A stretch of DNA of 12,023 nucleotides from a virus. Positions 1,839 through 7,061 of the stretch are shown one piece after another. The stretch is from UHGV virus genome UHGV-1573643. One strand, 5' to 3'. Each line of letters opens with the position of its first letter. The first letter of the stretch is position 1. The translations under genes and the position numbers were made by a program. Under the pieces are notes generated by a model, which was not told where the DNA came from, did no database searches, and saw nothing but the letters and a program-made list of their open reading frames with translations.

Positions 1839-3212
1839 CTACTTAATCAACGGCCGGAAAGCCGCCAGCACATCATCAGATCGTCCGATTGTTGAACCAC
1901 CAGGCAACGGCAACTCAAACTCAAAACGAACAGCTTTCTCCAGACTCGCCCAACTAAGGGAATCATCGTTAATGACGTGCAAATACCAGCTCTTACAGTT
2001 GAATATTGACCGCTTAATCCTGAAACCATGTACACGACACAACTGCTTCACTTCATCATCAGAGTGAAACTTCTGGTAAAACCAGTGCCCCTTCCGGTAC
2101 AACGCGGTAAAACCGTTATGATCAATAAAATAAAGCCGGCTTTTGGAACTCGCCGCTTGTGTTTGCTTCAGGACTGTTTCCAGCTCTCCACGGCTACGAC
2201 CAGAAAAGAATATTGACCCACCAGCTTTACACAGGCCTTTCAGAACCGTCAGAACGGACCATTCAGCCTCGACACTATCGACCGAGTTCAAAACGCTATC
2301 GCAAATCACGTAGTCGTAACGCCCTCGCGTTTTTAAGTCGTCCACCAGCGTATCAATCATTCGGTTTGTTGCAGCCCTATCCAGAGTGTTTCCAGCGCCC
2401 TTACGGCGGAAAAGCTCGAGATCATGCAGGTTATATCCCTTTGCCCTGAGCATTCGCGCGTAGTCTCCCTGCCCCGAACCAAAATCAATTCCTCTTGGCG
2501 TCTTGGCAATGATCGGGAGGATCAACGACTCATACAGATTTGATTTCAGGCTGCCACCATTACGCAACCGCATAAGCTGCGCATACGTCTGGATGTATGT
2601 TGTTTTCTCCAGATGAGAATACTCAAATACACCATAAGTTTTATTCAGATAACTTTGGTATTTTTCCTTCTCAACATCAGGGATCACAAACACCGTTAGC
2701 GGTGTGCGCGTCATTTTCGCTGCTAATGCATACTGAGCACAGTGAATAACCTCACCAGACTGAGTAGCAACACAACCACCCCACGGACCATACTTGATAA
2801 CCAGTTCCGCTATGTTCTTTCGAACATATGCCATTTTCGCGCGCATATTGCCTGAGATCTGGCTTGCCGATACCTGAACAAAACCATGCTTATCTTCCTG
2901 ACCGGACACCCTGCAACGCTCATCTCCGCTATCAAAATCCGTTCCGTTATGCAGTTGGTTAAACCGTACTTCGTCGTATACCGTCGTTTCACAGGGCAAC
3001 ACATACACCGCAGCACGCGTTATTCCCAACTTACGTAGCGCCTTCGTCCTTTGGTGTCCCGCCACCAGCAAATCGCCGCGCACTATCAATGGCTTCACAA
3101 GCCCCAGCTCCCTGACGCTTTCCGCCAGCCTCGCAAGATCATCCTCACCGATAAAACGCGGGTTATATTCCGCGCCGCGTAGGTGCGTTATGTCGTAATT
3201 GAGGTGAAGCAT
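1839..3212 (-). CDS. ParB/Srx-like N-terminal domain fused to class I SAM-dependent methyltransferase fold (about 457 aa)
   Basis: N-terminus KPLIVRGDLLVAGHQRTKALRKLGI parallels the ParB-like paralogs; C-terminal half has Rossmann MTase motif I IDFGSGQGDYARML, an acidic beta2 end (NLHDLELF) and YDYVICDSVLNSV. No DPPY/NPPY/DPPW motif, so substrate is unclear. Preferred start ATG 3212..3210 (GGAGG 9 nt upstream, TGATG overlap with upstream stop); alternative GTG at 3218. Confidence 0.8.
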   Translation of the reverse strand: MLHLNYDITHLRGAEYNPRFIGEDDLARLAESVRELGLVKPLIVRGDLLVAGHQRTKALRKLGITRAAVYVLPCETTVYDEVRFNQLHNGTDFDSGDERCRVSGQEDKHGFVQVSASQISGNMRAKMAYVRKNIAELVIKYGPWGGCVATQSGEVIHCAQYALAAKMTRTPLTVFVIPDVEKEKYQSYLNKTYGVFEYSHLEKTTYIQTYAQLMRLRNGGSLKSNLYESLILPIIAKTPRGIDFGSGQGDYARMLRAKGYNLHDLELFRRKGAGNTLDRAATNRMIDTLVDDLKTRGRYDYVICDSVLNSVDSVEAEWSVLTVLKGLCKAGGSIFFSGRSRGELETVLKQTQAASSKSRLYFIDHNGFTALYRKGHWFYQKFHSDDEVKQLCRVHGFRIKRSIFNCKSWYLHVINDDSLSWASLEKAVRFEFELPLPGGSTIGRSDDVLAAFRPLIK

Positions 3213-3835
3213 CAGCACACCTCCCCAGCCAGCAATGCGGATACAAATCCGATATAGCTGCCATTATCATCAACATAACGAGACACCGCGCAGTCAAAAC
3301 GATCCGCTTCCTCATCCGTTGCCGGGATTTTATGACCTCCAAATGACAGGTACTGAACTTTTACGCCTGATTTGGCCTCATCCTTCTCAAATGGGATATC
3401 CATACCCTCTGTGTCATCGTAGACCGCCGCACTCAATAAGTTATCCAGTTCGCGCTGAGTAAAACCAATTGAGTCCAGAGCAAAATCATCGGCCGCAAGA
3501 TCTGCAAGCTCCGCGCTTAACAGCTCTTCATCCCAACCAGCATTCAGCGGAATACGGTTGTCGGCCAGACGATATGCCTTCTTCTGATTCTCCGTTAGCC
3601 CTTCCAGAACAATGCAGGGAACATCATCCATCCCCAACTGAGTGGCCGCAGCAATTCGACCATGACCAGCAATTACAACGTTGTTCTCGTCTATCAGGAT
3701 CGGATTAGTCCATCCGTACTCCTGTATGCTGGCAACAATCTGATCTACCTGCTCCACGGAGTGTGTGCGAGCGTTCTTTTCATAACCAATCAACACAGAA
3801 AGTGGTAAAGAAACCACATTAAGATGTTTTGTCAT
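3212..3835 (-). CDS. ParB/Srx-like N-terminal domain protein, paralog 2 (207 aa)
   Basis: ORF-track ORF; motif ILIDENNVVIAGHGRIAAA and QKKAYRLADN typical of the ParB N-terminal (ParBc) fold; stop overlaps the start of the fusion gene. Confidence 0.8.
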   Translation of the reverse strand: MTKHLNVVSLPLSVLIGYEKNARTHSVEQVDQIVASIQEYGWTNPILIDENNVVIAGHGRIAAATQLGMDDVPCIVLEGLTENQKKAYRLADNRIPLNAGWDEELLSAELADLAADDFALDSIGFTQRELDNLLSAAVYDDTEGMDIPFEKDEAKSGVKVQYLSFGGHKIPATDEEADRFDCAVSRYVDDNGSYIGFVSALLAGEVC

Positions 3836-4067
3836 GCCGTTTATCCGCTAAAATCCCCTCGCTTGTGCAAGCAAGTGGGCCTCGGTTTGTATCCACGGCA
3901 CCCTGTGGGTATGAATGACTGTCGTCAGGTCGCAACTGACGGCGGTCGCCCACCTTCCAGTAATAAAAAAGCCACCAGCATTAACTCCACAGCGAGCTGG
4001 AGTTAATGAGGCAGCTTTGGTTTGCGCATTATCGCAGCCCCTGGTAAGCACAAGAGCTGCTGTAATG

Positions 4068-4099
4068 CTAAAAAAACAAAACCACCCGCAGGTGGTTTT
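4068..4099 (-). terminator. rho-independent terminator for the minus-strand moron gene
   Basis: Perfect 9 bp stem 4078-4086/4091-4099 (AAACCACC-CGCA-GGTGGTTT); on the minus strand it is followed by TTTGTTTTTT (complement of the A-run 4071-4080). Lies 28 nt after the stop at 4128. Confidence 0.65.
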
Positions 4100-4127
4100 A
4101 TAAATAAATAGCAAACAGGTATCTGCA

Positions 4128-4535
4128 CTAATCAGATAAACCAAACTTCTTCTTTGCCAATGACTTGAGAAGTTCTACACCAACATCCTTCATAACAGCC
4201 AATGGCTCATTGCTAATTTCTTTTAGTCTAGCGAAAACATCTTTGCTCTCTAGTGCACAGGCAAAATCCTGTCCCTCTGTAGTCAATCTAATATCTACAT
4301 CAACAGTCCTCATTCCTGCCAAAAAATTAACATAGCCAAGACGCAGAGGATCACGCGTTTCCATCTTCATATTGCTGATAAAACCTTGCTCAATCAATTG
4401 CATATAATGAAACATGCCCTTTTCTGAGGCTATATCAAACCCCGCGTCTCTTAGTTGATTTACTGTTATGAACGTGCTTTCTGAATCCAAAAACACAGTC
4501 AGCATCTTTTTTAGATAATCTAGATCGGTGCGCAT
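4128..4535 (-). CDS. hypothetical protein (135 aa), AT-rich moron with its own terminator
   Basis: ATG at 4535..4533 preceded by AAGGAGGG (strong SD, 5 nt spacer); visibly AT-richer than neighbours (by eye); followed by an intrinsic terminator. The ORF track's longer 4571 start lacks an SD. Confidence 0.7.
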   Translation of the reverse strand: MRTDLDYLKKMLTVFLDSESTFITVNQLRDAGFDIASEKGMFHYMQLIEQGFISNMKMETRDPLRLGYVNFLAGMRTVDVDIRLTTEGQDFACALESKDVFARLKEISNEPLAVMKDVGVELLKSLAKKKFGLSD

Positions 4536-4622
4536 TTTACCCTCCTTAAATGGAACGCAAATGTTACACAACCTTTAAAAAAAGACACATTGTTTTATTT
4601 ATGCCTCATTTTAATCGACCAA

Positions 4623-4775
4623 TTACTGCCTAAATTTATCAATAAATAATTGCTCCCGCTTACGCCGAAAAGCTCTCTGCGCCACTAAGATGCGCCACAG
4701 GACACCAGCGATAACCACCAGCGAGATACAAAAACACACGGCCACAACCATCAGAAAAATGCCAACACCATTCAT
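4623..4775 (-). CDS. small single-pass membrane protein (50 aa) with cationic C-terminal tail
   Basis: Hand translation MNGVGIFLMVVAVCFCISLVVIAGVLWRILVAQRAFRRKREQLFIDKFRQ; ATG overlaps the upstream stop as ATGA (4775..4772), indicating translational coupling. Below the 60 aa cutoff of the ORF track. Confidence 0.45.
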   Translation of the reverse strand: MNGVGIFLMVVAVCFCISLVVIAGVLWRILVAQRAFRRKREQLFIDKFRQ

Positions 4776-4978
4776 GAAACTATCCATTCTTCAATGAATA
4801 TCTCCAGTAATGTCAAGAGATACGCCGTCCCCAGCGCGGTTCCTACCGATATAGCTAAGACAAACCTCAAAGATAACGAGGTGTCTTTCGCTTTTCTCCA
4901 GACGTAAGCGCCAGCCAGAAATACCAACAAATCTCTTATTGGAAGCGGAAACCAGAACAAATCACTCGGCAAGTCCAC
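4772..4978 (-). CDS. small membrane protein (68 aa, two predicted TM segments)
   Basis: ORF-track ORF; GTG start at 4978 with GGAAGGA 8 nt upstream, embedded in the 3' end of the upstream gene; hydrophobic stretches LLVFLAGAYVW and FVLAISVGTALGTAYLLTLL. Confidence 0.5.
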   Translation of the reverse strand: MDLPSDLFWFPLPIRDLLVFLAGAYVWRKAKDTSLSLRFVLAISVGTALGTAYLLTLLEIFIEEWIVS

Positions 4979-4980
4979 GG

Positions 4981-5436
4981 TTATATCCTTCCATTCATTT
5001 TTATCGGATGACCAGATAGCCTTACGCAGTTGAGCTGTAAAGCTCCGGTATCAACTAAATAATCAACTAACATGATTAGAGATTCATATTCAGCCAGACA
5101 GCTAACCTGACGCATTCGACCGCCGTTGTTCTCCAGAATGTCGGCCACCTTTGCAGCCAACTCGCTTAGACAGGAGAACTTATTCCCATATATCGTTTTA
5201 TACTCGCGCTTCTGGCATTCTTCGGCTTGCGGCTGGTTATCGAGAGCTATCATCGACCGATAACTATCAAGGAAGTCCACAATCTCATTCAGGCACTCTT
5301 TGGCTGCCTCATCGTGACTTTTTCCGTATGCTTCATGGAGGACTTTCATCCTCATCATTGCTCCGTCACACATAATCGAAAGCGCGTAAAGCACATCACT
5401 AATCGCCATTTCTTTTTTGGTGCTTGTCGAAGGCAT
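4981..5436 (-). CDS. hypothetical protein (151 aa), first gene of a four-gene accessory cassette
   Basis: ORF-track ORF; ATG at 5436 with AAGGAG about 9 nt upstream; sits directly after an intrinsic terminator. No family recognised. Confidence 0.65.
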   Translation of the reverse strand: MPSTSTKKEMAISDVLYALSIMCDGAMMRMKVLHEAYGKSHDEAAKECLNEIVDFLDSYRSMIALDNQPQAEECQKREYKTIYGNKFSCLSELAAKVADILENNGGRMRQVSCLAEYESLIMLVDYLVDTGALQLNCVRLSGHPIKMNGRI

Positions 5437-5461
5437 CCCATGTTCTCCTTTGTCTGGATGT

Positions 5462-5487
5462 AAAAAAGCCCCGGCAATTGCCGAGGC
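5462..5487 (-). terminator. rho-independent terminator / attenuator between the two accessory cassettes
   Basis: 8 bp stem 5468-5475/5480-5487 with AATT loop; the single mismatch on the plus strand becomes a G-U wobble in minus-strand RNA; followed on the minus strand by UUUUUU (complement of 5462-5467). 24 nt after the stop at 5511. Confidence 0.6.
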
Positions 5488-5510
5488 TCGTTGTTCGTTA
5501 TCGTTACGGT

Positions 5511-6677: not shown

Positions 6678-6986
6678 GTTAGTTGTGCCTCCGGCGCTTA
6701 TCTCCGGCAGTCATAACGCTGGCCAGCTCTACAGCAAACACAACGAAAAGGGCACTAACCAGACTGATTAATGCCCTTGCCTGTTGTGTGCCGGATATCG
6801 CCCGACAACGCTGTTTTGGTAACACGGCTACAGTTCCGTGCCGCTCCAGCTTTTACCCCTTTGCGGATAACAGGCCCTGCCTGTAACTTAGCCCCACGTT
6901 CGCCCGAAATGCGCACCAGGCACGCATAAAGATGAGCACGAAGGAAGTAACTCCACCGCGCTTATCTTTATGTGTGAGAGTGAATT

Positions 6987-7061
6987 GGTGGCCCCTACCG
7001 GATTTGAACCGATGACCGTGCGATTATGAGTCGCCTGCTCTAACCACTGAGCTAAGGGGCC
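6987..7061 (-). tRNA. tRNA with CAU anticodon (Met, or lysidine-modified Ile2-type)
   Basis: Minus-strand sequence GGCCCCTTAGCTCAGTGGTTAGAGCAGGCGACTCATAATCGCACGGTCATCGGTTCAAATCCGGTAGGGGCCACCA folds as a cloverleaf: 7 bp acceptor stem GGCCCCT/AGGGGCC, D-arm GCTC/GAGC, anticodon loop CTCATAA, T-loop TTCAAAT, encoded CCA. The 5' half matches my recollection of E. coli ileX (not searched). Confidence 0.85.

Follow-up and report, generated by a model that had tools for sequence, protein, structure and literature searches.

Gene content of the interval

The stretch of DNA analyzed here, 12,023 nucleotides (nt) of the viral genome UHGV-1573643 and hereafter called the window, matches a family of circular plasmids of about 46-49 kb from E. 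coli and relatives, members of which have also been isolated as myoviruses. Between the lysis module of this phage-plasmid and its ParB/methyltransferase/packaging module lies a variable accessory region, in which four small genes, here called p151, p68, p50 and p135 after the lengths of their products, are bracketed by two intrinsic terminators. A preliminary description had read them as one accessory cassette. Comparison with relatives shows that the locus is an ordinary mosaic cargo hotspot with two layers, one of resident genes and one acquired.

All genes in the window are on the minus strand, and so are both terminators. In the direction of transcription the interval begins with terminator T1 (5466..5489; a 10 bp stem with 7 GC, then TTTTTT), directly upstream of the ribosome-binding site of p151 (4981..5436). 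This gene encodes a soluble protein of 151 amino acids (aa), assigned to phrog_14707, with the Shine-Dalgarno (SD) sequence AAGGAG 8 nt upstream. The second gene, p68 (4772..4978), has a GTG start with GGAAGGA 7 nt upstream, and its product has two weaker hydrophobic spans. For p50 (4623..4787) there are two possible starts, an ATG at 4775, which gives 50 aa and overlaps the TGA stop of p68 as ATGA, and an in-frame ATG at 4787, which gives 54 aa and overlaps p68 too; the latter (MDSF...) matches the N-termini of homologues (MDYV..., MDHY...) better. In the p50 protein a single strongly hydrophobic span precedes a conserved basic tail (RAFRRKREQ...) with a net charge of +6. The interval ends with p135 (4128..4535), which encodes 135 aa with an isoelectric point (pI) of 5.2 behind the SD sequence AAGGAGG, and with terminator T3 (4076..4101; an 11 bp stem, then TTTTTTT).

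The two terminators named in the preliminary description are real and were placed by our scan at 5489-5466 and 4101-4076, and the four reading frames, the ATGA overlap of the 68/50 pair, the strong SD of the 135 aa gene and the membrane character of the two tiny proteins were likewise confirmed. The claim of a foreign base composition holds for p135 (GC content 0.39 vs. 0.474 for the window) but not for p151, p68 and p50 (0.447-0.458). Terminator-like sites are not enriched in the window as a whole (14 found vs. 11.6 expected), T1 and T3 ranking second and fourth among them.

Resident genes p151, p68 and p50

The interval from the p66 homologue to the ParB-like gene was compared in fourteen relatives, referred to by L numbers where they need to be told apart. 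Every relative examined that has an intact locus, as far out as Salmonella, Citrobacter and Yokenella, has both a gene of the p151 family and a homologue of p50, and the two are kept even where ParB is only about 80% identical (L012, L013). In Salmonella and Citrobacter a p151-like gene of 194-251 aa abuts a 55 aa p50 homologue, followed by a terminator and then by a PHROG 1935 gene. A deletion in L009 removes p50, and L014, a more distant relative (ParB 59% identical), is without p151, p68 and p50. T1 is conserved throughout the phage-plasmid family, and in all relatives, including L012 and L013, the sequence from T1 through the SD sequence to the p151 start is conserved as a single string (GGGGCTTTTTTACATCCAGACAAAGGAGAACATGGGATG). 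As T1 abuts the ribosome-binding site there is no space for a promoter, and p151, p68 and p50 therefore need read-through of T1.

Among the relatives, p68 is restricted to L013 and the E. coli group, where it is inserted between p151 and p50; it is absent from the Salmonella and Citrobacter relatives and unannotated in every RefSeq relative inspected. It is probably a real gene overlooked by annotation, because its protein sequence is conserved in L013 (27 of 67 residues identical; proportion of non-synonymous differences, pN, 0.37) while synonymous sites are saturated (pS 0.98). For p50 the ratio of non-synonymous to synonymous substitution rates (dN/dS) of distant pairs was 0.26-0.67; divergent homologues were used because the close E. 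coli copies are too similar for a decisive dN/dS, the frame controls looking alike.

Members of the p151 family share a conserved N-terminal helical hairpin (residues ~1-64) joined to an exchangeable C-terminal domain, and relatives range from 67 to 323 aa. What follows the hairpin is shuffled, with forms of 99 aa, of 151 aa, and of 190-320 aa with added helical segments and a C-terminal SPAITV-like repeat. The family is confined to contigs no longer than about 49 kb, with many in the 44-49 kb range; its named members come from E. coli, Salmonella, Citrobacter and Yokenella. No match to p68 was found in Pfam, PHROGs or NCBIfam, and p50 gave sub-threshold noise in the same collections, e.g. CcmD and Vpu. 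Neither of the two small proteins matches the holin, antiholin, Hok or exclusion family models of these collections, and a tblastn search of annotated phages with a p50 homologue returned no match. A spanin function for p68 and p50 was rejected, Rz and Rz1 equivalents being already present at 7633-7231.

T4 Imm and HK97 gp15 are small phage-encoded inner-membrane exclusion proteins. With these, and with pinholin-size proteins having two transmembrane spans, p68 and p50 share size and topology class; unlike exclusion proteins and pinholins, they show no sequence match and are conserved core or sublineage genes, not variable cargo. The soluble hairpin of p151, the basic-tailed anchor of p50, the conservation in the family and the place in the late region behind a terminator lead us to propose that p151, p50 and p68 may assemble into a small complex at the inner membrane that serves late functions of the phage itself. 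In such a complex p50 would be an anchor with its N-terminus out and its C-terminus in, made in a fixed ratio with p151.

A different possibility is that the three genes are lysis or packaging accessories, either tuning the holin in the manner of an antiholin or aiding DNA packaging. Their position between the lysis and packaging modules and their conservation within the family fit this, and gene starts that adjoin or overlap hint at coupling to a membrane anchor. Part of the support comes from the p151-family N-terminal hairpin, which in nine of 21 members weakly matches the C-terminal part of DUF1804, the Mu gp27/D3112 Orf24 family of putative small terminases; the p151 family also matches phrog_756, annotated as 'DNA binding protein', at E 3e-4. 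The best DUF1804 match, however, reaches 17.7 bits (gathering score 29; E about 0.0034-0.0036) and covers model positions 92-151 only, and the nine matching members are related and hence not independent, so that the likeness of the p151-family N-domain to DUF1804 and phrog_756 is kept here as an unconfirmed lead from profile comparison. Moreover, two holin-family genes, an endolysin gene and the genes for both spanins are already on hand in the lysis cassette, the large terminase is directly preceded by a separate small-terminase candidate, and L014 does without p151, p68 and p50. We regard an accessory role in lysis or packaging as unlikely. The same separate candidate led us to reject p151 as the small terminase itself.

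An acquired module downstream of p50

Identity to the relatives holds through p50 to about codon 43 (~4648) and resumes at 4068, right after the T-tract of T3. The 578 nt in between are a horizontally acquired module (4069..4647, minus strand), consisting of a new p50 C-terminus (the last ~7 codons), an 87 nt AT-rich leader, the p135 gene, which as detailed below belongs to the DUF2513 family, and a terminator. In most relatives the slot holds another terminator and a phrog_1935 gene, which encodes 136 aa, or 237 aa with a tail-fibre-assembly-like N-terminus. T3 came in with the DUF2513 gene and is not present in relatives carrying phrog_1935. These alignments show that the DUF2513 gene and its terminator replaced a resident terminator and phrog_1935 by recombination, with breakpoints in the last p50 codons and just past T3.

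The first ~100 residues of the 237 aa phrog_1935 products (L004:4207-4920, L002:7118-7831, L010:2496-3209) match Caudo_TAP and phrog_136; the Prokaryotic Genome Annotation Pipeline breaks this reading frame into a pseudogene and a hypothetical protein.

A relative of the window is carried by 71 complete E. coli genomes, nearly always on a plasmid, and the exact module occurs in 6 of the 71 at 98.8-100% identity. It is also found in seven PLSDB records, with at least 80% of the longer query covered. The DUF2513 unit is thus variably present between neighbors that are adjacent in relatives, which p151 and p50 are not; p135 alone of the four genes has a distinct base composition; and the unit has its own terminator, T3 lying within the swapped segment. 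A consensus scan found no sigma-70-like minus-strand site in the four-gene interval. The DUF2513 unit is a mobile, moron-like unit that shows three of the four classical features of morons; of the fourth, a promoter of its own, no sign was detected.

DUF2513 genes in other phages

Close homologues of p135 (49-81% identity) occur on chromosomes of Citrobacter, Edwardsiella, Pantoea, Pectobacterium, Serratia, Hafnia and E. coli. The DUF2513 gene follows a spanin gene of varying type (Rz, DUF2570/LysC or DUF2514) on the same strand, at a distance of 47-102 nt, in Citrobacter, E. coli, Pectobacterium, Serratia and C. youngae. There it is mostly upstream of the terminase, with an intervening ParB-methyltransferase gene in Serratia, as in the window; the exception is the Pantoea copy, which is in a decayed prophage. 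Many unrelated lambdoid prophages likewise carry a gene of this subfamily 33-111 nt after a spanin gene and upstream of the small terminase. Among 32 IMG/VR loci, spanin components accounted for 18 of the 25 distinct upstream neighbors of the DUF2513 gene, and small-terminase types for 12 of the 21 first sizeable downstream open reading frames (ORFs). The GC content of the homologues is 0.38-0.40 vs. 0.45-0.51 for their host loci, and they usually have a terminator of their own, these terminators being non-homologous between hosts. When seven independent regions upstream of the DUF2513 gene were scanned for promoters, none scored above shuffled sequence, 10-71% of the shuffles scoring as high or higher.

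Because of its post-spanin position, low GC content, private terminators and lack of promoter signal, the DUF2513 unit appears to be a transferable pair of gene and terminator that joins the end of the lysis transcript. Morons in this position have a precedent: in the moron concept of Hendrix and Juhala, lambda bor, downstream of Rz, is a lambdoid moron located after the lysis genes. Like lambdoid morons, the DUF2513 unit combines a gene of deviant composition with its own terminator and lies past the lysis genes, between modules that are adjacent in relatives. Unlike them, it has no detectable promoter and, in its strand and close spacing to the spanin gene, resembles a tail-end member of the late transcript; and unlike a moron added by pure insertion, it has here displaced another cargo gene.

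These results bear directly on the idea that the four genes are a single terminator-insulated moron, expressed in the lysogen and acting jointly in superinfection exclusion, abortive infection or defence. The bracketing terminators and the small membrane protein genes are real, the last gene has a foreign base composition and occurs in some relatives only, and a rare fusion of DUF2513 to a TIR domain exists (see below). The histories of the genes differ, however: p151 and p50 are in every relative with an intact locus, p68 is restricted to a sublineage, and DUF2513 also occurs in lambdoid prophages that have none of the three, so that this presence/absence pattern largely refutes a single four-gene unit. 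Insulation by the terminators is also doubtful, since T1 leaves no room for a promoter and no promoter signal above shuffles precedes p135. A search of PADLOC-DB v2, the kind of profile search proposed in the preliminary description, gave no match at E <= 1 for p151, p68, p50, p135 or two upstream genes, leaving a defence role not shown, and the first three genes have ordinary GC content. We consider a joint four-gene moron very unlikely. The moron hallmarks do apply to the DUF2513 gene with its terminator, given its presence in a minority of plasmids, its sharp breakpoints and its recurrence between spanin and terminase genes, and do not apply to the other three genes. The presence/absence comparison, also proposed there, shows a variable DUF2513 unit beside conserved p151 and p50, and for these two it partly gives the outcome, conservation in relatives, that the preliminary description had named as speaking against its own reading.

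p135, a divergent DUF2513 protein

Against Pfam DUF2513 (PF10711) p135 scores 19 bits (E 0.0019), below the gathering score of 29.6, and against phrog_585 it gives an E value of 1e-25. NCBI labels proteins 99% identical to p135 as DUF2513. A profile of the p135 subfamily found 292 cluster representatives (50% identity) among 1.8 billion proteins, nearly all of them stand-alone and of 130-145 aa, and 48 of the 75 relatives retrieved with the p135 profile match DUF2513 (best 9e-15). The assignment of p135 is transitive, through these relatives and phrog_585, and by sequence comparison p135 can be placed as a divergent member of the known domain family DUF2513, in an enterobacterial subfamily. 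Like DUF2513/PHROG 585 proteins, it belongs to a stand-alone class of ~130-145 aa with an N-terminal winged helix; unlike typical DUF2513 proteins, it is below the gathering score and in a subfamily with a very conserved C-terminal helix. The statement in the preliminary description that none of the four proteins is recognizable accordingly needs correction for p135.

The AlphaFold model of p135 is confident (mean predicted local distance difference test, pLDDT, 93.8) and shows a winged helix (residues 1-85) and three C-terminal helices, the last of which is strongly conserved in the subfamily, ...VGVELLKSYAKKKFGLSD, ending KKKFGLSD. Neither p135 nor the family profile had a significant match in sequence searches of the PDB, and a BFVD search gave no informative match. 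NCBIfam and Pfam searches with six local proteins yielded nothing except the weak DUF2513 match, and no relevant paper on the function of DUF2513/PF10711 was found in the literature searched.

As expected of DUF2513, p135 has a winged-helix core in a stand-alone protein of ~100-140 aa. It is possible that p135 is a conventional MarR/PadR-like regulator, binding DNA as a dimer on phage late or host genes and having no direct role in defence or counter-defence. Its nearest folds are the DNA-binding winged-helix proteins TubR, STIV F93, MarR, PadR and HxlR, it has a winged-helix-type motif ...IRLTxxGxxF, and the conserved basic C-terminal helix (KKK) could contribute DNA contacts. Set against this, p135 shows neither sequence membership in the MarR/PadR-type winged helix-turn-helix factors nor their basic DNA-reading surface: the acidic character of the family (median pI 5.2-5.3) and the net negative charge (+1/-2) of the predicted recognition helix weigh against classical operator binding without being decisive. 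Operator-like repeats did not turn up, though no search was aimed at such repeats, and the gene travels between phages with unrelated regulatory circuits. A plain regulator seems to us fairly unlikely, if the most serious of the alternatives. We prefer to see p135 as a non-enzymatic, acidic winged-helix binding protein that would be cargo in phage-host or phage-phage conflict.

Indirect links to phage-host conflict

Two relatives with Acb2 homologues connect the locus to counter-defence. In L014 the equivalent interval between lysis genes and ParB encodes a T4 Vs.4/Acb2 homologue (L014:5041-5508; PDB 7uq2, E 1e-7), and in L086 a DUF2513-like gene is preceded, at 108 nt, by an Acb2 homologue (L086:2635-2892; PDB 8h2j, E 2e-7), itself downstream of holin, endolysin and spanin genes. 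The genomic slot therefore carries proven counter-defence cargo. Like the Acb2/T4 Vs.4 sponges, which act against the cyclic-oligonucleotide-based anti-phage signalling system (CBASS), p135 is small, acidic and non-enzymatic and occupies the same lysis-to-ParB/packaging interval; unlike Acb2 it shows no sequence or fold similarity, and the association is purely positional.

Domain fusions give a second link. In the protein P0100 (278 aa; L059:355-1191), a distant relative, a CAP12/Pycsar-type TIR domain (E 8e-21) is joined to a complete DUF2513-like module, from which it follows that the DUF2513 module can be a non-catalytic part of an effector; its contig is just 2 kb long and hence offers no genomic context. 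Another protein, P0178 (378 aa), has a DUF2513-like module with a weak DUF4062 match.

The conflict-related evidence is thin, and it appears to point to counter-defence at least as much as to defence. A conflict role, whether in counter-defence or in exclusion and defence, is our best single guess for p135 on the present analysis. Among the particular roles, counter-defence would be the leading candidate, with a chance that is substantial though less than even, followed by plain DNA-binding regulation; exclusion or defence, and something else altogether, are each somewhat less likely again. A bolder proposal is that stand-alone DUF2513 proteins are a widespread counter-defence family of temperate enterobacterial phages, made late together with the lysis genes. 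They might then serve as decoys or dominant-negative partners of host effectors with a DUF2513-like module fused to TIR or DUF4062 domains, or sequester the signal that these sense. Independently, the p151-p50 pair, with p68 in some lineages, could have a new membrane-anchored function such as exclusion of re-infection. We rate this bolder proposal as quite improbable.

The interpretation that we favour, and hold to be probable by a modest measure, is a two-layer mosaic in which resident p151 and p50, with p68, lie behind T1, a DUF2513 unit has been swapped in after them, transcription is late and p135 is conflict cargo. Read-through or antitermination, and not promoters active in the lysogen, would then account for transcription of all four genes, as part of the late (lytic) transcript. 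Several points weigh against this interpretation. For a gene within an antiterminated late operon, having a terminator of its own is a classic argument for independent expression in the lysogen, and our promoter scans were consensus-based, so that weak or non-sigma-70 promoters escape them and lysogen expression is thus possible. The p151-p50 complex is deduced solely from conserved adjacency and overlap of the genes, and the AlphaFold model of p151 is poor (pLDDT 62), being confident for the N-terminal helical hairpin alone. The conflict link consists of Acb2 co-location in two cases and, among 150 listed relatives, a single clear TIR fusion, and PADLOC, NCBIfam, the PDB sequence search and BFVD returned nothing specific.

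The phage-plasmid and neighboring genes

The hosts of the phage-plasmid family are E. coli, E. fergusonii, Salmonella, Citrobacter and Yokenella. The E. fergusonii plasmid NZ_CP057564.1 equals the window at 100% identity across 2.77 kb, and Yersinia phage vB_YpM_39 shares 99.4% identity with it over the region. The element is identified as a phage-plasmid because a full relative encodes RepA, ParA, a toxin-antitoxin pair, a lysis cassette, terminase, portal, capsid and a P2-type contractile tail. The phage vB_YpM_HQ103 was considered as a family member and rejected, being a 32 kb P2-like phage. Literature searches on the phage-plasmid family returned irrelevant papers.

The gene order in the window starts, in the direction of transcription, with two holin-family genes, a GH108 endolysin gene and two spanin genes (8837-7231). 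These are followed by a tRNA gene with anticodon CAT (6986-7061), an MT-A70 methyltransferase gene (6677-6090), p89, p66, the p151-p68-p50-p135 interval, a ParB-like gene and a ParB-methyltransferase fusion. The tRNA is tRNA-Met according to ARAGORN and the Yersinia phage record and tRNA-Ile in RefSeq relatives, the latter implying lysidine modification. Three ParB/Srx-like genes lie within ~6 kb before the terminase (3212-3835 and 1839-3218 of the window, minus strand, and about 9297-9872 of L007/L008). One of them is fused to a methyltransferase, and together with the separate MT-A70 gene they make up a dense late set of DNA-modification or nuclease-like genes. Downstream of a 239 aa gene (1822-1103), the window is very AT-rich at about 450-900 (GC content 0.29-0.32), between that gene and the next ParB-like/terminase block known from relatives.

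Conserved non-coding elements

A conserved structured non-coding region precedes the ParB-like gene (3836..4068, minus strand) and is found family-wide. Across six relatives it has compensatory changes at ten predicted pairs, and in a hairpin at about 3943-3922 three consecutive pairs are wholly exchanged in half of the sequences. It also contains a long terminator-like hairpin with a T-tract at about 4018-3965, which a simple terminator scan overlooked.

A second conserved non-coding element, of ~270 nt, lies between the terminator of the p66-like gene and the terminator preceding p151 in some relatives (L006:2735-3040, L012:4300-4585, L013:4063-4370). In the lineage of the window its body has been deleted, and what remains is its 3' hairpin at 5489-5466, i.e. 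T1. In L006 the element contains no ORF of at least 40 aa. A consensus fold of three copies by RNAalifold has -76.7 kcal/mol, with just two compensatory pairs. Rfam returned no match at the gathering score, and the final 60 nt gave a sub-threshold isrJ-like match (24 bits vs. 37). This element is a candidate phage-plasmid small RNA, as judged from the sequence.

Implications

A defence moron cannot be recognized from terminators, small membrane proteins and an AT-rich gene alone. At this locus it is comparative presence and absence that separates resident genes from one mobile gene. DUF2513 is a tractable family, being compact, with a confident fold, a fixed post-spanin position in prophages and rare TIR fusions, and near-isogenic plasmids that carry either DUF2513 or phrog_1935 provide a natural allelic replacement. 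The interval between the lysis genes and the ParB/packaging genes is a reasonable place to seek more counter-defence genes in phage-plasmids, because relatives carry the anti-CBASS gene Acb2 there.

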